A DNA stretch of 64,000 bases from Octopus vulgaris (Eukaryota), in NCBI GenBank assembly GCA_951406725.2, contig OX597837.1, positions 4,340,001-4,404,000 of the forward strand, read 5' to 3'. A model generated the notes under the pieces. It made no database searches. It was given only the letters and a program-made list of their open reading frames with translations, and was not told the DNA's origin. Within the stretch, counting starts at the first letter, position 1; each line of letters starts with the position of its first letter. This document shows, piece by piece, positions 2,881 to 60,442 of the stretch. The position numbers and the translations under genes are program-made.

Positions 2881-3174
2881 GCCTAAGTTTTGTAACTGAT
2901 CTCATTTGCAACAGATTACAAAACCTTTGGTTTCTTCATCATCTCTTCTAGCAAAGAAATGAGCTGATGAGTTTTTTAACTTTGAAGGAGTATTTATAAA
3001 TCCGGCTTTTCTTTTCCTTCATTCCTGGAATCATTTGCTTCGTGTCAGATTAAATAGAAAAATAGACATAAATAGTGTATATCACCGTGATCACCGTGAT
3101 CGACCAGGCCATCAGATGTTGTTACACATCGCTGGTCACAATGCGCTTCGCATTGTTTTAGCCTTCAAATGACT

Positions 3175-3330
3175 TCGTCTGCCGTTACGTTCTGAGTTCT
3201 AATTCCGCCGATGTCCACTTTTCATCTTTTCAGGGTCGATAAATTAAGTATCAATGAAACACTAGGGGCGATGTAATCGACCATCCCCATCCCCCAATTT
3301 TTTAGGCTTTGTGCCTATAGCAGAAAGGCT
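3175..3330 (+). mobile_element. SINE family B, 5'-truncated, with CCCC..CTTTGTGCCTATAG tail type
   Basis: CGTTACGTTCTGAGTTC..GGGTCGATAAATTAAGTA..GATGTAATCGAC. Confidence 0.7.
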
Positions 3331-3472
3331 TATACATATATATATATATATTACATATATAATTAATCAATATAGGGTGGCAAAAAAAAAAAAAAAATTT
3401 TGTAGAATTCTTTTGCCACCAGCGGCCTAGTGGGAAAAAATTAAATAGTCATAAACCATTTTTAAGTTCAAC

Positions 3473-7418: not shown

Positions 7419-7572
7419 TGATCTGCCCCACCTTTTTTTTTGTTCACGATTCCTTTTCATCGGAATTCGCCCCCCACCTTTTTCCTTTTCACGATCCTTT
7501 TTGATCGGAATTTGCCCCCATTTTTTCCTCCTTTTGTTCGTCTTCTGTCCCTTCTGTGTGGCCATTAGAGAA

Positions 7573-7575
<3 letters not shown>
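7416..7575 (+). mobile_element. Tx1-like 3' terminal fragment between (ATCT)n and (ATGT)n
   Basis: CGATCCTTTTTGATCG and CCCTTCTGTGTGGCCATTAGAGAAAT resemble the 3' UTR and end at 33537-33655; internal ~46-bp duplication. Confidence 0.55.
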
Positions 7576-14174: not shown

Positions 14175-14390
14175 TATTTCTTTATTGCCCACAAGGGGCT
14201 AGACATAGAAGGGACAAACAAGGACAGACAAAGGGATTAAGTCGATTACATCGGCCCCAGTTTTTAACTGGTACTTTATTTATCGACCCCGAAAGGATGA
14301 AAGGCAAAGTCGACCTCGACGGAATTTGAACTCAGAACGTAACGGTAGACACATCGCCCGGCGTGCTAATGTTTCTGCCAGCTCGCCGTT
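14175..14390 (-). mobile_element. SINE family B with Tx1-type tail
   Basis: Tail TTTGTCCCTTCTATGTCTAGCCCCTTGTGGGCAATAAAGAAAT. Confidence 0.85.
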
Positions 14391-16596: not shown

Positions 16597-16830
16597 CTAT
16601 TTCTTTACTACCCGCAAGGGGCTAAATATAGAGGGGACAAACAAGGATAGACAAAGGGAGTAAGTCGATTACATCGACCCCAGTGCGAAACTGGTACTTT
16701 ATTTATCGACCCCGAAAGGATGAAAGGTAAAGTCGACCTCGGCGGAATTTGAACCCAGAACGTAACGACAGACGAAAAACCGCAAATCATTTCGCCCGGC
16801 GCGCTAACGTTTCTGCCAGCTCGCCGCCTA
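16597..16830 (-). mobile_element. SINE family B with Tx1-type tail and 15-bp TSD
   Basis: ATCGATTATAAATAT at 16582-16596 and 16831-16845. Confidence 0.9.
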
Positions 16831-20822: not shown

Positions 20823-21921
20823 AAAACCTTTAAGGTGATTCCCTAACACAACCATTGTTCAATAACTACAAAAATGAAGGAATAATTTGATTTTTAATTA
20901 TTTACATTGAACTTAAGTTACGATATTGCTGTATTCAACTGATCTTAAGATTTGATTCTGTCACTATTGGGGTGATTGGTGGAACCTTTCCAGATACGTC
21001 TGGTGCATAGAAGACCCATTATATATTGGCGTTAACGTAATTAATGTACTGAACTAAATCAGAAAAAAAAAGAAACAGGCATTAATTAAAATGAAATACA
21101 TTGTGATGACTGGAATCTAATATCAAAGCTATTAATAGTACTCAAAAATTTCATGGGAGACAATTTATTTAAAAATTAATATACAGGTGCAGGAGTGGCT
21201 GTGTGGTAAGTAGCTTGCTAACGCACATGCGCAATTAGTCAGTTGCTTCCTGTTCAGCCAGAGTGGACGCGAGTCAATCAGCTCCGTCCAATTAAAGAAA
21301 AAAGACCAAAAGCGGAAAGTTGTCGAGGTAAGTGATTTTGTTTATTGTGAGTTGGGCATAATTTATTGCGTGCCAATTATTATTTCAGTAAGTTGTGTCC
21401 AACTCTGAGACAATTTCGCCTGCTCTCGGCGGCTGCCGTTTTTGTGTTCATTGAAAAAAAAAAAGAAAAAACAGTGGAGGGGCGTATCCTCAGAATTCAA
21501 TACAGTTACTGTTAAAATTACCGTTGGCGGTAGCCAGTGCTGTATTTGGGTTTGTTGAATTTATTCCCTTGTCAGAGTACTTCGCAAGAAAATTATAAAA
21601 ATAAGCCACTATTGGATTACCTTTCGGACCCATTTTTGTGGAGGTTGTGTTGCAGTTGCGGCGTTCCAGGTTCAACCCAGGCCGGGAGTACCGCAAGGCC
21701 AGAATATTTTGCTGTGTTTTTTCTGTTTATTAACTTTCTTTTGAACTTCATTTAACCCCCCCTTTTGTTTTTTTTCTTTATTGCGACTTTCCGTTAATTT
21801 CTTCCCTTCTGTTGTGCTTTCTCCTTTTTGTTTTTTCAAAAATCTATCAAATTTTATTTGGACTTTTGAACTTTTTTCTTCCTGCTTTTGAGTTTAATTT
21901 GAATATATTTAAAAAAAAAAC

Positions 21922-22788
21922 ATGGCAATGAAAAATAACAAAATTTTGGAGTGGGAAATCATACCCCCTAAAAAGTGGTTAAAAGACCGTGAAGATAGGA
22001 CGGTGGTGTTGAGAACCTACTCCAAGGCACTTGACACCATTGCCCTATTCGAAAAGACGGCAATTGAAAAGGAGTTGGAAGAGTATTTGCCAACAATTAA
22101 ATTCATTTCCAAGGGTGTCAAATATGCAACGGTGTGGTTGCTATTTGACACCCCCGAAGAGGCTTGCAAATTTGCTAGCAAATCCCTGGAGGGTAAGGAA
22201 ATCTTATTCCTGCCCACGTACAAAAAAAAGAAATTGATGAAAGCTTGGATTTGCGGACTGCCACCCGACATAGAACCCGAGTGGATAGAGGAGACTATCC
22301 GCCGGGGTCTGGGTGACAGCGAAACTAAGCTCCTCAATGTAAAAGTTCTTCCTGCGGCTGCTTGGGTTGGGTCAAAAGCAATTTTGACCCTGTGGACCCA
22401 ATCAGCCAATCTGGTTCTTCCAGATTTTTTGAAAATGGCCGGGTGTAGGTACCCGGTGATGCTTGAGGGTCGCCCCCCTAAGTGTCATCGGTGCTTGGAG
22501 TCCGGCCACATAAATAAGAACTGTCCTCGGGAACAAAATAGGATCCCGGAACAGTTAAGTAAAACCCCTCTAGAAGAGGGAACGATAACGGCCGAGAAAG
22601 CAGAGGACTCCTCAAACAGAGGCCGAAAGAGGAAGGTGAGCAACAATGGGTGCTCACCAAAGGATAATAGGGATGAGGAGAGGAAGGCGAATCTTCCAGC
22701 CACGGAGGAGACGCACCCTCCCTCAGTTGAAAAGGGAAAAAAAAGAAAAAGAGGAAGAAAAACGGGACATTACCGGCTGTCAGTGTAG
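21922..22788 (+). CDS. L1/Tx1-type ORF1 nucleic-acid-binding protein (RRM-like region and CCHC zinc knuckle)
   Basis: 288-aa ORF with GRPPK-CHRCLESGHINKNC (CX2CX4HX4C); collinear with ORF1 of the Tx1 element. Confidence 0.85.
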   Translation: MAMKNNKILEWEIIPPKKWLKDREDRTVVLRTYSKALDTIALFEKTAIEKELEEYLPTIKFISKGVKYATVWLLFDTPEEACKFASKSLEGKEILFLPTYKKKKLMKAWICGLPPDIEPEWIEETIRRGLGDSETKLLNVKVLPAAAWVGSKAILTLWTQSANLVLPDFLKMAGCRYPVMLEGRPPKCHRCLESGHINKNCPREQNRIPEQLSKTPLEEGTITAEKAEDSSNRGRKRKVSNNGCSPKDNRDEERKANLPATEETHPPSVEKGKKRKRGRKTGHYRLSV

Positions 22789-23159
22789 CACCGGAATGTC
22801 CCGGAACTACGTCGGTTGGGGTTGTGCCACCGACAAGAGAAGGAATACCGTTGGCGGAAACTGTGCCGCCAACGAAAGAACTGAACGTATTGGTCCTCTT
22901 CTATAGAGGAGGAGAAATTGAAAAAGTGATGGAAGAGCACTACAAGGGAGCACCTTTAGCCTTCACACAGGACCCCGAATGGCCTCCGCAGGTAGCTGTG
23001 GAGGCCGTGGCGTTCGACGTGACGCTTGGGCTAAAGGAGCTCAATGAAGATTATAACTTGGTCCCGGGCGACGCGAACTCGGAACTTGACTACGTTCTGA
23101 GGGAGGCGTGGTTGATGGTGGAGGGCGCGGGCACAAGCTATTTCGAGGACGATATGTAA
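22732..23159 (+). CDS. -1 frame C-terminal extension of ORF1 (fused product ~412 aa)
   Basis: The -1 frame is open from the GGGAAAAAAAAG run through KKRKKNGTLPAVSVAPEC..VVPPTREG..FEDDM*. Confidence 0.6.
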
Positions 23160-23180
23160 TTATTGAACTGTTATTATTAG

Positions 23181-23303
23181 TAATGGACTTAAGTCCAAAA
23201 ATTGAAAAATTGTAAGAGGATTAATACCTCGTTTTGTATTAATAATGGACTGCTAAGTCCAAAAATTGGAAAAATTGTAAGAGGTTTAATACCTCGTTTT
23301 GTG
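23181..23303 (+). repeat. Tandem duplication (~60 bp x2) in the 3' UTR
   Basis: TAATGGACT..AAGTCCAAAAATTG..AAAATTGTAAGAGG.TTAATACCTCGTTTTGT occurs twice. Confidence 0.9.
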
Positions 23304-25474
23304 TTTATCTTTAAGAAGAACAATGTTTTAGAGAAGCGAAAGCCGGCGGGCGCTTTTTGTCTTCTCCCATCCTTATCATCTTTCTTTCATTATCATTCAC
23401 TTCATTAATGTCCTCGTCCAGTCCGCAAAGCTAACTTAATCTGTGTACTGCCTTTATGGCAAATGTTTTGAAATAAAGTAGCTTGTTTACCAACCACATG
23501 GTTCCGTGTTCAGTCCCACTGCGTGGTACCTTGGGCAAGTGTCTTCTACTATAGCCGCAGGCCGACCAAAGCCTTGTGAGTGGATTTGGTAGACGGAAAC
23601 TGAAAAGAAGCCCGTCGTATATATGTATATATATATATGCGCGTGTGTGTTTGTGTGTCTGTGTTTGTCCGCCTAGCATTGCTTGACAACCGATGCTGGT
23701 GTGTTTATGTCCCCGTTACTTAGCGGTTCGGCAAAAGAGACCGATAGAATAAGTACTGGGCTTACAAAGAATAAGTCCCGGGGTCGAGTTGCTCGATTAA
23801 ATGCGGTGCTCCAGCATAGGCGCAGTCAAATGACTGAAACAAGTAAAAGAGTATAAGAGAGTTGAGAAGAAATATGCGTTTTGGTAGGTTTGTGACAATT
23901 CTGAATATGTTTATATATTATTAAGCATCTTAAGCTAAGCCTAGTTTAACACTTGTCGGCATAATATTGGTAACTGGAGAGAAAATAGGAGTTTAGTGAA
24001 TGCACACAGACTGGCGTGATAAATTTAAAAAAGTGACGGAGGAAAATTCTCAAGTGTTTCTATGGCATAGAAAAGTAGTTTTAAATTGGCTGCTAACACA
24101 TTTGATTTGGAGACAAAAGTAATTTTTTATTAATATGAATGACCCAGTTAAAAGAAACGAGGAAAAGAATTACATTATCAATCCTGATCACGAAAAGTAG
24201 GAGGGGTAACTTCAGCATTTAAGTTAATTAATTTTAATTTAATATAGAAAGCAATGATAAATGAGAGTTTTCACCGCAGAACTCTGTTGTTAATTAGTTA
24301 AAATTACACAAATTAACATTTGCATTGAATATAATACAGTTAACTAATTCGTGATATTGCAATTAACCTTATCAATGAATTTATACTTCTTCTTAATAAG
24401 GTCTTAATAATCAATTCATTAGAATAAAACCTTGCCAAATAAAAAGGAGACCCTTAAATTACCATATTAAAGAAAATAATCCCAGGTAATGGCCTATAAT
24501 TAGGAGCTCCCTGAGATCCCAAATATCTGTAAAATTATATTTCAAGGTGTCAGCCCCAAATTTCTTGAGCAAAATTATGTATTTACATCATATTTTGCAT
24601 ACAGATGCAATTTTAAATAATCAATTTTCTCTGCTTCACTAAATTCTTTATGTTATTAATTATATATTTAATTATGTTATCATGTCCACTATTATCAATT
24701 CCATACATGCAAACGAAGTCGCTAATGATAATTCCTGCTTTAGTTAACTTACATAACTCCGTTGATCCTATCATAACTATCACAATCACGTGTAATTTCC
24801 TCAATAAATATAAGCAGTAAGTATCCAATTAAAATAAGGTGCTGTAATTATTTAATGTATGTTTATTTAGTGTACCGGGCTAAATCAAAATCCCCCAATC
24901 GATCCTGAAAAGGTGTTAGTACATACATATCCTGAAATAAACTACCATGAAATAATTATAGTTACAAGACCAGCAAGAAATAGCAACTAAATCACATACT
25001 GCCTTAAAAAGGAAGATATATATTGAATAATATCCTGATCTGAAATGATTGAACGAAGAGTGGGACGGTCGTGGTAGGAAAGCCTTTGGTTATATCTCTG
25101 CTGAATCAGGCCTCACTTTGGAGAAAAAAATCATCAAAAAGGTGAAAACAAACAAGCAACTTAAAGCTCCATGGGCTCATCAAACGAAACATGCTCGTTC
25201 GGCGTAAGTAACGGAATGGTGGGATTTCAAAATCATTCCTAGAAATGGGGATGCTATTGGTCAAAGCAGAAGATTTTAGTTACTAGCCAGAATCAAATGA
25301 AATAGCTAAATAGTAAATAAAAATATATATTAGACATTTACTCGAAAATTATCACATTTTATCATTTTGGCAATATTCAGCGCTATTCCGTGCTAAATAT
25401 TTCTTTCTTCTAGAAACAAAAGACCTGAAAAGTTTTAGGAGATAGGGATAGATGATTATATCGAACGCGTGCAC

Positions 25475-27418: not shown

Positions 27419-27584
<166 letters not shown>

Positions 27585-27760
27585 GGACGTGCTGTCACTT
27601 CGGCTCCGAAGGTAATCGTTTATTTTGACTATTTATAGCCCATATTTTGTGTACATTTTTGCAAATAAGGTGTGTAAGGCACCCAACTTTCGTTTGAGTG
27701 CTTTTCCAAGGGAGTTTCAACCCCATTTCATTTCTGTAATTTTCTTCTCGACATTAGAAA

Positions 27761-29954
27761 ATGTCGAGATATTTTATTGTAGAACGCTGGTCGCGTTCCT
27801 TTATGGACCAGCATTTTCCTAGTTTGGAAACGCTAGGAGAAGAAAAAAAGAACTCATGCACGCAAAGTGCAAATCTAAATGACGTGGCAGTGAACGCTGC
27901 AACCACTTGCGATAACAACACTGTCACCACCACCACTAACAACAACAACAACAAGACTACTACTGCTACCACCACCGCCTCCACCACCACCACCACCGCC
28001 ACCTCATCCACTACCTCAACTAACAACAACAATAACAATGACAACAAGAATAACAACATTTGCGCCACCATTTCGACATCTGCTGCCACGGCTGTCTCTT
28101 CTGCCACTGACACCACCGCCAACAACAATAACAACAACAACAATTCCGTTCAGACCTTGTTTCATCCAACAACAAGAACTGAAGGGAATAAACAAAAGAC
28201 TGTGACCACCAAACAAATTGACAAAAGCTGCTCGAATGCAGGGATAAACTATGCAAGTAATTTTCCACCCCTTCCTACTTGCACAATCAAACCAAATACA
28301 CCGATTTTACCAACTGCAGCCAACAACAACATCACCACCAGCAACAACAATAACAAAACAACAACAAATTTCGCCGAGGCGATAAAAGAAAAAAAGACAA
28401 CAGTATATTTTACTGCACAACAAATAAAAGATACGAACATTTTAATAACGGAAGTAGATGGTATAGTAAAAATAAACATACCACAAGAAATATTAGAAGA
28501 TGAAAAGAAAAGAACAATTATATATAAAATAATTAATAAGAAAACAAAAAGTCCAGAGAAGGCTAACACAAGCAAAATCGAAAAATGCTTGAAACCCATC
28601 TGGAACTACAAAGAGTATGTGACCTGGTGGAACAAGTTCGCACACATACAAGTGGTCTTCCACACTGAAGAGTTAGCAAGACGTTTCTCAACGCTAACTC
28701 TTCATTCAGATGAACTTCAACTAACACCAAGCTATCGTGGACAGAAAGTGACTAAGATCACTTTAAACAATGTCCCAAAAATAGCTAACAATCTATGGCT
28801 AGTAAAGGCCTTATGTGTGAAAATGGAAGATTTCACAATTTTAGAAACTACGGTCACGGAGCACAAAAACTGGGTGGGAAAAAAGTAGAATTTCTACTAC
28901 ATATAAACCAAGAGGACATAAAGAAAATACCCACCCAGATATGTGTATCAGAAGACCACAAGTTGTATGTGGTCGTCGATGGCAGAAGACCACGTTGCTA
29001 CATATGCGGCAGTGAGCAACACCTAAAAAAAGACTGCAAATATGCCGCAAGAAAACAACAGCAACAACAACAGCAGCCGGAAAAAACAAATAAACCAGCT
29101 TTACTACCCACACCACGTTTTGCACGAACAGGACTAATCACAGAAAATCAACAAAAAACAAACCTCACCAACCAAACATCCACACCAACCGCAGCAAGAA
29201 CAGAAGCAACACCAACAACAACAACAACCAAGAATAAACCAACTCCCAAACCAAGGGCATCTGCCAAAAAGACACTCATCGAAAATGAAGAAACAATTAC
29301 TAGTCCAAATCCCCACAAAATTGACACCCCAAACAACACAACAATACCTACAATCACTCAAACACAAAATACCCACACCCCACCTCCAAAACCGCATACA
29401 CCACAACCTAACGCTCACCAACCAACACCAACAACACAGTCTACAATAGACCCCAATATTTTCCCTGTCCCAAGCTCTGATTTCTCTGATTTGTCATTAG
29501 ACGAAGAAGACACAGAAGATTGGCAAATAGCCACAGGGGGGAGAAGAAAAAGGGGAAAAAAAGAAAAGAAAATATAACAAACAAAGCAGGAAGATTCACC
29601 ACTCCCGAAACAAAAACATCCACAGAAAACAAACACATCAACACAAACACACCATCATGAAACCCCCCAACAATGTTGACAGCCATAAACACAAACAACC
29701 ACGACCTAATGGAACACATTAGGTCAAACACCAACATAACTGAAAACGACATAAAAACAAATAACCACCCACGCACAACACCACCACAACACATTAAAAT
29801 AATACACGTAACACAGAACACATACAGCACCCTGAAATCTCTTTACCCTGATGCAGTAGGGAGATTTCAAAAGTATTCATCAAAGAAACTATACAAAAAC
29901 CTCATGGAAGAAGACTGTGAGGTGAAAAACAAAAGACTTTCGAACAACAAGTAA
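27761..29954 (+). pseudogene. Tx1 ORF1 (Thr/Asn-rich N-terminus, RRM-like region, CCHC knuckle), broken by two -1 shifts and one TGA
   Basis: ORFs 27761-28888, 28795-29577 (GRRPR-CYICGSEQHLKKDC) and 29673-29954; shifts at about 28880 and 29555; TGA at 29658. Confidence 0.85.
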
Positions 29955-30022
29955 CCTTTTCTCTCTCTCTTTCCTATTTTGCACTTTCTTTTCGTGTGTA
30001 AAACACAATTTTTTATCGGAAC

Positions 30023-33000
30023 ATGCTCAGAATAGGCAGTATAAATGTACGTGGCTTGGGGTCGCCTTGGAAACAAGGCTACCTGTTAAATGACATCAAG
30101 TCACTAAATCTGAATATCATAGCCATCAGTGAGACCAGACTCCACAGCTCGCGGGCACTCCGGCACAGTTTCGGTACACATTTCAACATTTATTTTTCTC
30201 CGTGTCTACCGAGAATGGGCGGAGGTGGCACCGCGGTGCTTCTCCGGAAGAGTCTGGATCTCAAAGTAAGAGCAATTTTCCTAGACCCGGAGGGTAGGCT
30301 GGTCGTTTTGGATGTCGATGGCAGCAATGAGTGTGCTTTTCGACTGATAGCAGTTTATGCTCCGTCCTTAACAGGCCGACCAGATTTCTTTCGACGTCTA
30401 GAGTCTTTCATGGGAACGTCTCGTCCTTTACTTTTAGTGGGGGATTGGAATGCCACCCTGGACACGCATCTAGACTACGTGGGCAGAGATAGCAATAGAA
30501 GGGGATGCAAATGCCTCAAAGACCTGCTCAGACGTTTCCAACTGTCTGACAGGTACCGACTGGACCACCCGAATGTGCCAATGTGGACATGGAGTAACCG
30601 CATCGGGTCGTCCAGATCATACTTAGATAGAGTATTCTGTAGGACAATAGATAAAAATAGTGTAGGTTGTCCACAATTTCATATAGTCAGTTACACAGAT
30701 CACAAGTTTGTGACTTGTACACTTGACTTAGATAAGACACATAGGCAGGGTCCTGGTTACTGAAAACTGAACGCGTCTTTTACAGCACGACAGGTTTACA
30801 GGGACCGGATCAGCACATTAGTTAAGAGAGCTTTGACGGGTACCATCATCAACAACAGATGGTGGTATGCCCTAAAAAAAGCAATTAAAGTAGAATCAGT
30901 CAGATACAGTAAAGCCCTAGCATTAGACCGAAATAGAATAGAGGGAGAATTAGTTAAGGTTTTAGAAGAGGCACTTAGAACTGGCATCGCGTCCAACGTG
31001 CTGGCGGCGAGATTGGCCCTCGACCAACACCTCAACGCCAAACACGAGGGATGCGTTGTCAGAGCTAGGATGCGTGCTCTGAGGAACGAAGGAGTTGGAG
31101 CCGCCCAAGAGGCCCGAGTGGTGGAGACGCAACGAGGCAACAGAGCCACCATCAAGTCTCTTATAGATGAACAGGGGCGCGAATTGCTCGAGCCTAAAAG
31201 GATGTGTGGGGCTTTTCAACAACACTTCACCCAACTGTTTGGGACAAGTGGTGGGTCAGAACGCAGAGTGGACTTTAGTGCCTGCCTTGCTACGACTCTC
31301 AGCAAGAGAGGTGGAGTCTTGTGAAAGGCCTATCACAGCTGCGGACGTACAGGATGCGATGGTAGGCTGCGCGAGAGTATTATAAAACGGGAGTATTCCT
31401 GCTTTTGTAAAGCGAGGAGCAGTAGCACTGATTAAGAAAGACCCAAACAAGGGGGACGTCATAGATAATTTCAGGCCCATCACTCTCCTCAATGCAGATT
31501 TGAAAATTTTGGCCAAGGTGTTAGCCGAGAGGTTGGCGCTTGTCATCAAGAAACTAATCGACAAGGCGCAAACATGCGCCGTGCCGGGTAGAAGTATTCA
31601 TGACAACCTCCATCTGATGCGCTACATCATAGACAGGGTAGTTAAGAATCCTGGCATGGGTGGGGCGCTGATCAATTTGGATCAATCAAAAGCTTTCGAT
31701 AGGGTAGACCATCACTACTTGGAGGCTGTCCTTAAAGCGTCTGGTTTCGGTCCAGTTTTCCGCGGTTGGATCGCTGCCTTATACAGCGGCATCCGCTCAG
31801 TAGTTCGCGTAAATGGTCATCTATCCAGACCTTTTAACATCATGCGTTCGGTTCGTCAGGGATGCCCCCTCTCATCGCTCCTGTATGTATTGACTCTTGA
31901 GCCACTACTGCGGAAACTGGCGACGCTGAGGGGCATCCAACGAGAGCTGGGATGCGGGAGGAGCGTGTCTGCATACGCGGATGACGTCACCGTCATAGTG
32001 TCGAGCTACAAGCACATCGAACTGGTCGGCGAGACACTAAAAGAATACGAAGCGGTAACGGGAGCAAAAATTAACCGGGAAAAGTCAGTGGGCTTGCGGC
32101 TCGGTACCTGGAGAAGCAGGCCCATGCCGTCCAACAGCGACTCCATCGTGGGACGCTGGACGGACGGACCGGTTAAATTGCTCGGGGCCTGGTTCGGTCC
32201 GGACCTCTAAATGGAGAAGAACTGGGGCGAGATAACGACTAGGGTGGCTACTCTCACCCAGAAATGGACTGAGAGAAAGCTATCCCTAAAACGTCGGGCG
32301 GGGGTGGCGAACGCGTACATCGCATCCGCCATCGAGTATCGTCTGACCGTCGTGCCTTGTCCCGACCCTACCATCACCAAACTGGAACGTATACTCTTCC
32401 GCTTCTTGTGGAAGGGAAACGTTCCGATGGTTAGGCGATCCATTTGCTGTCAACACCCGCTAAATGGAGGGCTGGGCATGCCGTGGTTGATGATGCGCAG
32501 ACATGCGCTGAGACTGCGACATCTCCGGCGCTTCATAGACAACGGTGAACAGGTGTGGTCGCCTTTTGTGCGGCGCGCTTTCCCGCAGCTCGTCTCCTTG
32601 GACGAACTACAGTCATGGATCAAGCAGAGGCCGAGGCTAGGCGAATGGCACCGCGAGTGTCGCGTTGCTCTCAAGCAACTCTGCCGTCCGGGATCGAACT
32701 TGTGCGACTCCATCACAACAAAGGCATTCTATAGAGGATTAGTGGAAGGGAGGTGCGACGACGAACTCGGACAGAGTCTGGGCGTCGACGAGGAACACCT
32801 GACCCGCCTGTTCAGGACAACTTTCGGACCGGGACCTATGAACAATCACCAAATATCCCTGGCCTGGTAGTGCTATCGAGAAGCATTACCTGTTCGGGAT
32901 AAGCTCTACAGACACGGTTCCAGACACACTGGACCGATTTGCCCGAGATGCGGTCAGAGCGACGAAACCGTTCTGCACGCACTCGTGCAATGTCCAACCA

Positions 33001-33358
33001 TTTCAGACCTGTGGGCTTATGCCGAGCGGCTGCTGACACGTGTGGGACGAATCCGCCTATCGGCCGAGTCTATCGTGAGAATTGCTCCGCCCCCTTCCTT
33101 CAACCGGGAAGGCAAGGCAGTTTTCATCGTACTGGTGGCCATGGTGAAAGAATGTGTGTGGTGGACCCGAGCGAAAGGATTAGAGACAAACACTTACCTC
33201 TCTGGCCAATCGCTCATCAACTTTTTCAAGTACCACTTGAAAAGGAAGGTGAGAATGGAGAGGGAAGTTTTGTCTCGCGAAAGATTAAAAAAAGACGGGT
33301 GAATGTTGCAAAGATGGTGCGTGCGAGTGACGAAACCATTTTGAGCATGATCCTGTAG
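30023..33358 (+). pseudogene. Tx1 ORF2: AP endonuclease, reverse transcriptase, C-terminal zinc finger
   Basis: SINVRGL, ISET, VYAP, GDWN, SYLDRV, TDH (APE); FRPITLLNAD, LDQSKAFDRVDH, VRQGCPLS, YADD (RT); CPRCGQSDETVLHALVQC; stops at 30761, 32208 and 32868, frameshifts, and an apparent deletion near 31375. Confidence 0.95.
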
Positions 33359-33655
33359 ATCGTAAAAAAGAAAGAAAGAGAGCATTTTGATCTCATGTGG
33401 TTATTTCCTCCCTGACTGAGGTTCCCGTGGTCTTTTCTGTAGGCTTTTCTTCCCACGGATGAACCCAATCTTGTTTTATCAATGTTTTTATCATTATTTC
33501 TGTGATACACGATTTCTTTTCTTTTTTTCCTCCTCTCGATCCCTTTTGATCGCAATCTTACATTTATTTTCTTTTTTTTCCACCCTCGAAAAGAAAAGCT
33601 CTGCATTTGTATTTGTCCCCTCTGTATTCAGCCCTGTGTGGCTAATAAAAGAAAG

Positions 33656-33708
<53 letters not shown>

Positions 33709-33995: not shown

Positions 33996-34338
33996 ATCTA
34001 TCTATCTATGCGCCTACACACTTTATATTATACTATCTATATGATATCATATATTATATTTGATTATATTGAACAGCGAGTAGGAAATTGGCAGGACTAA
34101 AAGAGCAGCGAGCAAAATATGATGCAGTATTCAGGTAAGTATCTATCCGTTTTGGGATCGAACCTCGACCAAGTCAATTTTGCTGTTCACTCCACAGAAG
34201 TCGATGAAATAAAATACAAATCAAATATTGAAGTAGATTGAAATCGAATATGCCTTTCCCTTAAATAGCAAGTGTTGTACGGATGCTAGAAATCTTATTT
34301 TGAGCGTGGACAACGGATAGCAGAATCTGTACAGCCCC

Positions 34339-34939
34339 AAAGGCGGAGAGCTGGCAGAAACGTTAGCACGCTGGGCGAAATGCTGAGCGGTATTTCGTCT
34401 GCGTTACGTTGTGAGTTCAAATTCCGCCGAGGTCGACTTTGCCTTTCATCCTTTCGGGGTCGATAAATTAAGTACCAGTTACACACTGGGGTCGATGTAA
34501 TCGACTTAATACCTATGTCTGTCCTTGTTTGTCCCCTCTGTGTTTAGCCCCTTGTGGGTAATAAAGAAATAGGTATTTCGTCTGCCGCTACGTTCTGAGG
34601 TCAAATTCCGCCGAGGTCGAATTTGCCTTTCATCTTTTCGGGGTCGATAAATTAAGTACTAGTTACGCACTGGGGTCGATGTAATCAACTTAATCCGTTT
34701 GTCTGTCTTTGTTTGTCTTCTCTGTGTTTAGCCCCTTGTGGGTAGTAAAGAAATAGGTATTTCGTCTGCCGTTACGTTCTGAGTTCAAATTCCACCGAGG
34801 TCGGCTTTTCCTTTCATCCTTTCGGGGTCGATAAATTAAGTGCTAGTTACGCATTGGGGTGGATGTAATCGACTTAATTCCTTTGTCTGTCCTTGTTTGT
34901 CCCCTCTCTGTTTAGCCCCTTGTGGGCAATATAGAAATA
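34339..34939 (+). mobile_element. Trimer of SINE family B with Tx1-type tails, single flanking TSD
   Basis: Units joined as tail AAAGAAAT|AGGTATTTCGTCTG at about 34571 and 34755; TSD AGAATCTGTACAGC at 34322 and 34940. Confidence 0.9.
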
Positions 34940-35064
34940 AGAATCTGTACAGCGCCGCGCATAATGTATTGATCTACGAAATTTTACGTTACCAGTTCAA
35001 ATCTCGCATTGACCTACTTTACCTCTCAGTCCTCCAGGGTCGATAAGCTAGTGGCTAAGTCAGA

Positions 35065-35280
35065 GTGGTGGGCTGGTAGAATCGTCAGCACACGAGACAC
35101 AATGCTTTGCGACGTTTCTTCCAGCTTTACGTTCTGAGTTCAAATCATACCGGGGTCAAGTTTGCCCTTCAACCCGTTTTAGGGCCAATAAAAAGTAAGT
35201 ACCAGTTGAGCACTTGGGGGTCGATATAGTCGACAAACATTCTTCTCCAGAATTTCAGGCCTTGTGCAAATAGTTGAAAA
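35065..35280 (+). mobile_element. Diverged SINE family B
   Basis: GTTCTGAGTTCAAAT..AAGTACCAGTTG..GGCCTTGTGC. Confidence 0.65.
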
Positions 35281-40679: not shown

Positions 40680-41050
40680 ACGTTCTCGAATTTGTGGGGA
40701 ATGGACTAGTCGATTACATCGATCCCCACTATTTCACTGGTACTTAATTTTTCGACCCCGAAAGAATGAAAGATTAAGTCAACCTTCGCGGAATTTGAAC
40801 TCAGAACGTAACGACAGACGAAATACCTATTTCTTTACTACCCACAAGGGACTAAACAGAGAGAGAACAAACAATGACAGACAAACGGATTAAGTCGATT
40901 ACATCAACCTCCAGTGCATAACTGGTACTTTGTTTATCGACTCCGATAGGATGAAAGGTAAAGTCGACCAGGCGGAATTTGAACTCAGAAGGTAAAGTCA
41001 GACGAAAGAATTTCGCCCGATATGCTAACGATTCAGCAAGATCGTCGCCT
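40680..41050 (-). mobile_element. Nested SINE B pair: Tx1-tailed copy followed by a copy with a different tail
   Basis: Junction AAAGAAAT|AGGTATTTCGTCTG at about 40827 (minus strand). Confidence 0.85.
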
Positions 41051-41300
41051 TGGGGATAATAATAATCCCTTTTACTATAGGCACAAGGTCGGAAACTTTT
41101 GGGGAGGGAGCTAATCGATTGTATCGATCCCCAGTATGTATGTATGTATGTATGTATGTATGTATGTATGTATGTATATTTGTATGTATGTATGTATGTA
41201 TGTATGTATGTATGTACGTATGTATGTATGTATGTATAAGCTGTATTTTTAAAATCTTTTATTAAATGTAACAAGCCCGAAAACCTTTTGATACCACCCA

Positions 41301-45262: not shown

Positions 45263-45497
45263 AAGGCGGCGAGCTGGCAGAATCGTTAGCACGCCGGGCG
45301 AAATGCTTAGCAGTATATTTCGTCTACCGCTACGTTCTGAGTTCAAATTCCGCCGAAGTCGACTTTGCATTTCATCCTTTCGTGGTCGATTAAATAAGTA
45401 CCAGTTACGCACTGGGGTCGATATAATCCAATTAATCTGTTTGTCTGTCCTTGTTTGTCCCCTCTGTTTTTAGCCCCTTGTGGCTAATAAAGAAATA
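45263..45497 (+). mobile_element. SINE family B with Tx1-type tail
   Basis: Ends TTTGTCCCCTCTGTTTTTAGCCCCTTGTGGCTAATAAAGAAAT. Confidence 0.9.
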
Positions 45498-51184: not shown

Positions 51185-51630
51185 TCTTCAAGTATCACTT
51201 GAAAAGGAAGCTGAGACTAGAGAGGTACGTTTTGTCGAGCGAATGTTTAAAAAAAAAGATGGGTGAATGTAGCAAGGGTGGCACGTATGAATGATGAAGC
51301 CACCTTGAGCATAATCCTATGAACCCGGAAAAATTTCAAACAGTTACTTACTTGCAAATAAATCTGTTAACATGTGACATTATTGACCGAGGTTACCGTG
51401 GTCTTTCCCGTAGGCTTTTCTTTCCAAGGATAAACCTTATCTGCTTCCCTCTTTACACTTTACATCAAGACATTTCTGTGATACTGGATCCCTATTGAAC
51501 GGTTTTTCTTTATTTTTTACGATCACTTTTGATCGACCCCCCTTTTTTCTTTTTTTTCTCCCCCAAAGAAAAGCTCTACTTTGTAATTTGTCCCTTCTGT
51601 GTTCAGCCCTGTGTGGCTAATAAGGAAACA
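51185..51630 (+). mobile_element. 5'-truncated copy of a related Tx1 subfamily, in (ATCT)n
   Basis: Homologous to 33225-33655 (FKYHLKRK.., GCCCTGTGTGGCTAATAA); followed by (ATCT)n. Confidence 0.9.
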
Positions 51631-59456: not shown

Positions 59457-60039
59457 ATGTGTTTGAGATAAAAGCTATAATTGAGTAAAACACTGCACAT
59501 ACTCACAATTTTTTTGAAACTAACGTTAACTATTATCTCACTAAATTGTGATGGAATAACCAAGACGATCGAAATAATAAGAGATAAAAAATGTTATTGT
59601 GATATTTGATATAGCCTCTGTCTGCTAAAATATCTATTATTGTGGCTTAAATCTTGCACTGATGGCGACACTCATATTCCATTCCCAAACACTAACACAC
59701 CTATTTAAAGATAATTCCAGTGTCCAAATGTATTTATTATATACGTATGCATGTATAGATAGCTAGACAGATGTATAAATGCACACACACAAACACTCAT
59801 ATATGCATACTTACATATATACATACGTATGTATATATATATATGTGTGTGGGTACATTACCACTCAGTTACACACACATAAATAATTTTTGAAAGTTTT
59901 ATGTGAAAGGCAGGATCTTCCCATTGCACAGTTGGTGGGATTTCAAATGTTACCTCCAACTCCGAGCCTTGACCCAACTAGTTTTGCTTTTACAGTTTCT
60001 GTGCCTGCAGGACGTTTGTATTGTTTTCTATGTCGAGGA

Positions 60040-60270
60040 CGACAGATGAATACCTATTTCTTTACTACCTACAAGGGGACAAACAAGGACAGACAAACGG
60101 AATAAGTCGATTACATCGACCCCAGTGTGTAATTGGTACTTATTTAATCGACCCCGAAAGGATGAAAGGCAAAGTCGACCTCGGCGGAATTTGAACTCAG
60201 AACGTAACGCCAGACGAAATACGGTTACGCATTTCGCTCGGCGTGCTAACGTCTCTGCCAGCTCGCCCCA
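60040..60270 (-). mobile_element. SINE family B with Tx1-type tail followed by AGGTATTCATCTG
   Basis: Same tail junction as at 34571 and 40827. Confidence 0.85.
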
Positions 60271-60442
60271 TTTTATTCTTGAATACCATCAGGGATCATG
60301 ATCATCATGATCATCATCATTATCATCATCAACTACAAAGAGATTCTCTTTAACGTTGGTTGGTAGCTCAACGTTAAATCAAAAATAGAGAATAAGAATG
60401 AACGAAAGAGGTAGATAGATAAGTAGGTAAGTGTATATATAT

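Follow-up and report, generated by a model that had tools for sequence, protein, structure and literature searches.

Why does the tail of an octopus SINE end, exact to the base, inside the head of another copy of its own family? In the accessible text of PMC13282606, SINEs are put at 11.6% of the Octopus vulgaris genome, and of the recently active families most are left unclassified. One SINE, here SINE B, lies tail to head in a trimer and a dimer within 64,000 nucleotides of this genome (contig OX597837.1, positions 4,340,001 to 4,404,000; hereafter the window), animal DNA rich in microsatellites. The original prediction read the arrays as nests, grown by a Tx1 endonuclease that cuts AGRTATTT-like sequence at one fixed site in the family's own head. 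The features that bear on this reading are collected in Table 1.

Table 1. Positions in the window of SINE B loci, their targets and the LINE copies.
Feature	Position	Strand	Remarks
Trimer: old decayed SINE relative (host), 5' remnant	34316-34338	+	left TSD copy at 34322-34338
Trimer: head, positions 1-49, including an A-box-like motif and one arm (5') of the 12-bp hairpin	34340-34388	+	3 differences in 49 sites
Trimer: body of unit 1, from position 50 through the B tail	34389-34571	+	least diverged
Trimer: unit 2, headless	34572-34755	+	B-box-like motif kept; tail variant GGGTAGT
Trimer: unit 3, headless	34756-34939	+	terminal tail variant GGGCAAT
Trimer: right TSD copy (34940-34956) and remaining old host SINE	34940-35047	+	host resumes from head position 17
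Dimer: upstream part (head, core, B tail)	40828-41051	-	deletion across hairpin apex; tail GGGTAGT
Dimer: downstream unit, headless from position 50	40680-40827	-	short non-B (A-like) tail
Solo B copy at non-SINE look-alike of head site	60055-60272	-	tail GGTAGT; 15-nt tail deletion
Look-alike target	60038-60054	-	first 8 bp repeated at 60287-60280, 7 nt before head
Solo B copy	16598-16830	-	tail GGGTAGT; 15-bp TSD plus extra G (or 16-bp TSD, 1 mismatch)
Solo B copy in TA repeat	14175-14388	-	tail GGGCAAT; 14-bp TSD, 1 mismatch; deletion across head hairpin
Solo B copy, TA-rich flank	45263-45497	+	tail GGCTAAT; no TSD found
Near full-length L1/Tx1-type LINE	27584-33656	+	inside TATC repeat; ORF2 broken by stops and frameshifts
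3' fragment, same LINE type	51187-51630	+	TATC repeat follows
3' fragment, related LINE	7421-7575	+	between TATC and TATG repeats; ends GAAATA like SINE tail

SINE B and its candidate partner LINE

The SINE B monomer, at about 232 nt, lies within the limit of 1 kb for a SINE. It is built from a head of some 90 nt, in which A- and B-box-like motifs occur, and a core, and closes with either the B tail or a short tail of the A type. Head positions are counted from the first A of the head's AAGG. A head-plus-core profile matched 23 times in the 64 kb, several matches being partial or weak, and the SINE B dataset comprises the eight B tails of this one window. The box-like motifs were judged by eye against what we take to be the consensus. 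SINEBase sets its tRNA criterion at 60% or more identity to a tRNA over 60 nt; in the repeat, ARAGORN called no tRNA gene and Rfam returned no tRNA match. Three of the six B-containing loci have clear TSDs of 14-17 bp, and a fourth has one of 8 bp.

Antisense translations of the repeat match Octopus bimaculoides proteins. In one of these (P0002, kelch-like 10 isoform X1), residues ~418-470 correspond to an antisense SINE piece annotated as an in-frame exon. This exon stops at about head position 50, and is either a true exonisation or an annotation artefact.

The near full-length LINE in the window encodes the ORF2 domains PF03372, PF00078 and PF13966 (APE, RT and zf-RVT), and its ORF1 (ORF 28789-29577) contains a CCHC knuckle, CX2CX4HX4C. 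The best PDB matches of its endonuclease are L1 endonucleases, and among the matches listed the closest named relative of its RT by identity is from Argonauta hians (70%). None of the 120 RT matches listed bears the name Tx1, and Atlas gave RVT_1 only. An APE, an RT, a C-terminal zinc domain and a CCHC knuckle in ORF1 are presumably the marks of Tx1, and the LINE has all of them; it fits Tx1 by these features rather than by its place in a tree of named families.

The B tail shares 33-38 identical positions over 45-47 nt with the 3' end of this LINE (seven of the eight tails; the deleted tail at 60055 was omitted), so the Tx1-type tail of the original prediction holds as a tail in common with an APE-RT LINE. 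Judging by this similarity, the LINE at 27584-33656 is the tail donor or a sister family of the donor. Consistent differences nevertheless separate the SINE B tails from the window's LINE tails, and the true partner may therefore be absent from the window. In the best reading, taken whole at about even confidence, SINE B is a SINE of the tRNA type that an L1/Tx1-type LINE mobilises, and part of its family is directed by sequence into heads of its own superfamily.

All three LINE 3' ends in the window run into TATC/TATG repeats, which this LINE family (27584-33656, 51187-51630 and 7421-7575, all plus strand) appears to target. A second element, at approximately 21590-23490 (+), has a gag-like ORF with a CCHC knuckle (21913-22788), no visible ORF2 and a different 3' end; it is possibly an internally deleted LINE.

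Landings at head positions 50 and 17

All eight B tails terminate in GAAATA, and three of them abut head position 50, exact to the base. These joins (34571/34572, 34755/34756 and 40828/40827 on the minus strand) are real and lie where they had been predicted. The target motif drawn from them fares differently. Its A belongs to the tail, since GAAATA closes every tail and none of 11 intact heads reads AGGTATTT. In addition, 15 of the window's 19 AG[AG]TATTT sites are away from any tail, and the LINE 3' ends sit on TATC/TATG repeats instead. Two of the eight tails (14175, minus strand; 45497, plus strand) precede TA-rich sequence unlike the head site. A family head follows four of the eight B tails, in events that may not be independent; Kojima, in the available text, calls a SINE target-specific when over 20% of its flanks belong to a single kind of repeat (PMC4494074).

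Other SINE-related sequences touch the same part of the head. A lone 21-nt stretch at 58364-58344 (-) has 95% identity to the position-50 head sequence, with no SINE around it and no insertion, and a headless A-type unit at 3170-3335 (+) starts about 5 nt past position 50 with a different repeat joined upstream. A second kind of tandem is found at 906-556 (-) and 41140-41051 (-), where A-type tails ending in ATT repeats are directly followed by a complete head; these probably reflect insertion into the ATT tail of an older copy.

The trimer marks a landing site that the original prediction, with its single site, had overlooked. A 17-bp TSD with one mismatch encloses it, and both TSD copies bear the divergent letters of the host, an old relative whose downstream part has 64-75% identity to young copies. 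The downstream piece matches profile positions 18-129 (E 6.8e-9, whole-window search), and the rebuilt empty site matches head profile positions 11-128 (E 1.4e-12); left of the break only about 6 nt of host align. The break in the host falls in the A-box region, after head position 16 and before position 17. Same-strand relatives cluster at 34090-35280 (+), with an old copy at 34090-34238, the host at 34316-35047 and an A-type copy at 35064-35234. A CCCC that precedes both array heads was set aside, the trimer's CCCC being part of the TSD.

The flank of the solo copy at 60055 (-) resembles the position-50 head site at 15 of 17 nt, as had been predicted; one of 120,175 background positions is as good. 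Its first 8 bp, with two departures from the head sequence among them, are found again just before the element, and 231 of 400,000 random 25-nt windows contain this 8-mer (chance 5.8e-4). The flank is therefore target DNA, and it is not a SINE remnant, since the empty site gave no head-profile match. The similarity covers 17 nt downstream of the nick only, and the short TSD requires a 7-nt filler. The flank at 16597 begins with GATATTT, in agreement with the original prediction, and its likeness to the head site ends with those first 7 nt (9/17 overall, background 8%); the extra G at this locus may be a TSD mutation.

Besides the position-50 joins, five flanks match the head 7-mer at 20 of 35 positions where 9.75 are expected (p 3e-4), or at 14 of 28 (p 0.012) when 60054 is left out. 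The chance of at least two of six independent events falling in a same-strand head is 8e-4. These figures support the view that the landing of SINE B in heads of its own superfamily is sequence-directed. This part of the original prediction is supported, with TSDs marking the landings at position 17 and at the head-like site of 60054; the single site and the AGRTATTT motif are given up.

The tails also differ according to what follows them. At one position of the tail stem-loop, T (GGGT/AGGT) occurs in all five G-followed tails and in none of the three others (p 0.018); when only GGTATT-followed tails are set apart, the association is not significant (p 0.14). The trimer, landed at position 17, bears the other variant. 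Since the variant ties target to source, it is our main reason for placing target information in the RNA. An inherited master would produce the same link, as would two partner LINEs.

We looked for older joins in protein databases. In antisense frames, a join-spanning profile matched two of 26 longer candidates, neither of which carries the exact position-50 join, and did not match the one candidate of near length. A tail-core profile returned 35 matches, a few of them unrelated repeats. In four of the 35 peptides a B tail appears to lead into a further unit downstream, at head positions estimated as ~16-19 (P0010), 18-27 (P0030), ~40 (P0015) and 50-65 (P0008, ambiguous). They are old copies seen at the protein level only, two of them near position 17, and the frame of the tail core cannot count position-50 joins because it contains stop codons shortly ahead of such a join. 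A GTDB scan with a 17-nt join pattern was discarded; the pattern was too short, and its 120 loci were all chance, with no alignment above 54 nt.

How the joins may have formed

The joins, TSDs, shared tail and two landing positions (17 and 50) demonstrated above are best accounted for, at about even confidence, by a loosely specific endonuclease acting together with read-through RNA that pairs with the target, the RNA being made by copies in which the join is already present. The LINE endonuclease would nick loosely at TAT(C/T)T-like sequence. A source copy at position 50 whose tail has no terminator would produce RNA that extends into head sequence; such read-through is possible because no T4 run is common to the nine units checked (four have private ones). 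The RNA overhang would then pair with the nicked strand, which would favour priming at matching sites, for the most part other heads, and recreate the join. Finally, the 5' end of the cDNA would anneal to identical host sequence without a scar, so that the array would consist of one head and headless units inside one outer TSD. It may also be that some units moved jointly, as a ready-made dimer from a position-50 source. Such pairing between RNA and target has been established in R1Bm and SART1Bm (PMC7265360), and homology-led 5' joins have been proposed for R2 and R1 (PMC6895275), in the parts of these sources available.

Several observations count against the pairing reading. The tails number only eight, the landing at position 17 has the other tail variant, and the unseamed arrangement, in which a head would be followed by a TSD and then by a full new copy, occurs at none of the three position-50 joins. 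Another, the TRGC that precedes the nick at both positions 17 and 50, is left unexplained by RNA pairing and suits endonuclease specificity alone. Here a sister Tx1 family would cut heads near TRGC/RRWATYY (nick at the slash) and mobilise one tail variant. RRWATYY follows six of the eight tails (a motif drawn post hoc, background 0.36%), the differing SINE tails leave room for a partner outside the window, and Tx1-Mar with SINEU-3 offers a precedent in the available text of PMC4494074. Against it stand the 3/3 LINE ends on TATC/TATG repeats, the lack of a match on the upstream side of the nick at 60054 and at 16597, and the one-sided, 17-nt match at 60054. Endonuclease specificity as the cause, part of the original prediction, is therefore unproven, and on its own we think it quite unlikely. 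Self-targeting in either form, by pairing or by the endonuclease alone, we regard as probable.

An extension of the pairing reading is more tentative, and we rate it as possible but doubtful: SINE B may program itself, each landing adding its target to the read-through RNA that the following generation makes and giving subfamilies a short guide. The guide would be position 50 for one tail variant and position 17 for another. A microsatellite-cutting Tx1 enzyme would thereby be steered to heads of the SINE's own superfamily, where it would gain a landing place that does no harm and, in the case of position 50, the use of the A box of the host.

The composition of the arrays bears on whether they grew by insertion at all. 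The trimer units are 7.7-10.9% diverged from one another, as unlinked copies are, and carry differing haplotypes, each also found in copies elsewhere. As the original prediction held, local tandem duplication or unequal crossover after insertion is hard to sustain against this divergence, the identical join at unlinked loci and the differing tails of the dimer. It has been proposed for arrays in bivalves (PMC11481361) and squamates (PMC10702118), as far as the available texts go, and it would suit the one change private to units 2 and 3; for SINE B we consider it highly improbable. An HDV-like ribozyme or rolling-circle origin, considered by eye, was rejected, with family-wide haplotypes differing between units and Rfam empty.

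The order of assembly is suggested by the core region. Unit 1 differs there at 1 of 116 sites and units 2 and 3 at 7 and 8 of 117 each (pooled 15/234, p 0.026), in a comparison picked after looking and confined to the core. Its own head, with 3/49, resembles units 2 and 3 and looks older than unit 1 (p 0.08). Over whole bodies no age difference was found among the trimer units (p 0.19; second test p 0.33). The core sequences thus lean towards unit 1 having probably been inserted last. The tree of eight units is a star, with none of its five branches supported, and therefore cannot decide the order; monophyly of the trimer is not rejected (p-AU 0.36).

Under a fixed multimer master, the position-50 join would have arisen once, dimers and trimers would be copied as one transcript, with no growth by re-insertion, and solo copies with an inner tail would come from priming inside a multimer. 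It would account for the single outer TSD, for the linkage of join and tail variant, and for the base-identical join, in which position 50 is always G although three of the six intact young heads carry A or C there. All three position-50 joins could stem from one origin. The divergence check that was to separate the two readings gave a divided answer, in that the units are not mutually close and yet units 2 and 3 share their private change; en-bloc copying may apply to these two, given also the monophyly test. The younger core of unit 1 argues against a master (p 0.026, post hoc), as do the unlike unit number and terminal tail of the two arrays, which are the only two available. A complex SINE family, dimeric or trimeric, would have a single fixed multimer structure in many copies. 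Two landings with TSDs of their own, of 17 bp in the old head and 8 bp at the look-alike, cannot be explained by a fixed master. We judge it rather unlikely as the whole explanation.

The dimer adds less to the question of age. No TSD was found around it, and its two parts do not differ in age (p 1.0 and 0.29). Its downstream unit does have the other tail type that had been predicted. The deletion in its head sits at the expected 5' join, and a similar one occurs in a solo copy; the two heads with hairpin-apex deletions are those at 14388 (-) and 41051 (-).

These deletions also suit breakage at the apex of the head hairpin, in which the RNA would be cut or skipped at the apex and the RT would jump to the tail of another RNA in a single event. 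In the fold of the trimer head the 3' arm begins with position 50 (z -4.9), the hairpin forms in three of four folded heads, 83% of cells pair over 10 heads, and jumps without homology are known (PMC6895275, available text). Covariation was not above that of shuffles, however, and RNAalifold preferred another structure; random inner tails are predicted where one variant is seen, and 60054 and position 17 are left unexplained. We hold this course of events to be very unlikely. The 12-bp hairpin may still explain where the first join formed, but not the linkage with the tail variant.

If pairing by read-through RNA is correct, a non-autonomous element alters its partner's choice of target by a few letters of RNA, which amounts to heritable targeting. 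It would also supply a mechanism for arrays of one head plus headless units that are now ascribed to unequal crossover, for example in bivalves, and what octopus repeat libraries give as 'dimer' consensus families may represent insertions nested in one another. If the join is only an inherited master, SINE B is an ordinary complex SINE.

SINE B among known systems

Self-nesting may have a parallel in Zepp of green algae, a LINE that nests in its own earlier copies; Zepp is autonomous and SINE B is not. Targeted SINEs driven by Tx1 and SINE arrays with headless units have both been published. In the literature covered, with Repbase and Dfam outside its scope, we found no account of an octopus SINE that targets its own head.

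The closest published case in mobilisation is SINEU-3 of crocodilians with its LINE Tx1-Mar (Kojima 2015, PMC4494074; described here from the available text). Like SINE B, SINEU-3 is mobilised by Tx1 and uses another repeat as target: 313 of 347 copies adjoin Mariner-N4_AMi, with a TSD of ~16 bp. Its tandems were at first taken as a subfamily and later as sequential insertions. SINEU-3 targets a DNA transposon, whereas SINE B targets its own head; SINEU-3 tandems sandwich a TSD, whereas the SINE B joins are scarless; and SINEU-3 has a target in common with its LINE, which is not seen for SINE B and the LINE of the window. The same text describes Kibi and Koshi, Tx1 families targeted to microsatellites, much as the window's LINE ends in simple repeats at all three of its 3' ends. 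The likeness is one of target only, the repeats being TC or TTC in Kibi and Koshi and TATC/TATG here.

For the proposed pairing, the available accounts of R1Bm and SART1Bm (PMC7265360, PMC6895275) describe a target-like 3' end of the RNA that pairs with the nicked strand and sets the start of RT. These are autonomous LINEs with strict endonucleases and rDNA or telomere targets, while the pairing of SINE B is inferred and its target is its own family.

The architecture of the trimer recurs in the TSD-(SINE)n-TSD arrays of the bivalve Scapharca broughtonii, in which the first head is full, the other units are cut off at one head position and only one TSD encloses the whole. Inner tails are truncated there and complete in SINE B, and unequal recombination rather than targeting is proposed for them in the text available (PMC11481361). 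The SINE-derived satellites of squamates similarly repeat part of a SINE in tandem and have leading and trailing monomers (PMC10702118, in part). The criterion for such satellites is at least four middle monomers and similar units within a locus; the trimer, with one middle monomer and units as diverged as unlinked copies, is by this criterion no SINE-derived satellite. Squamate satellites are long, homogenising arrays of partial SINEs, whereas SINE B forms two or three unhomogenised units that end in a LINE-derived tail.
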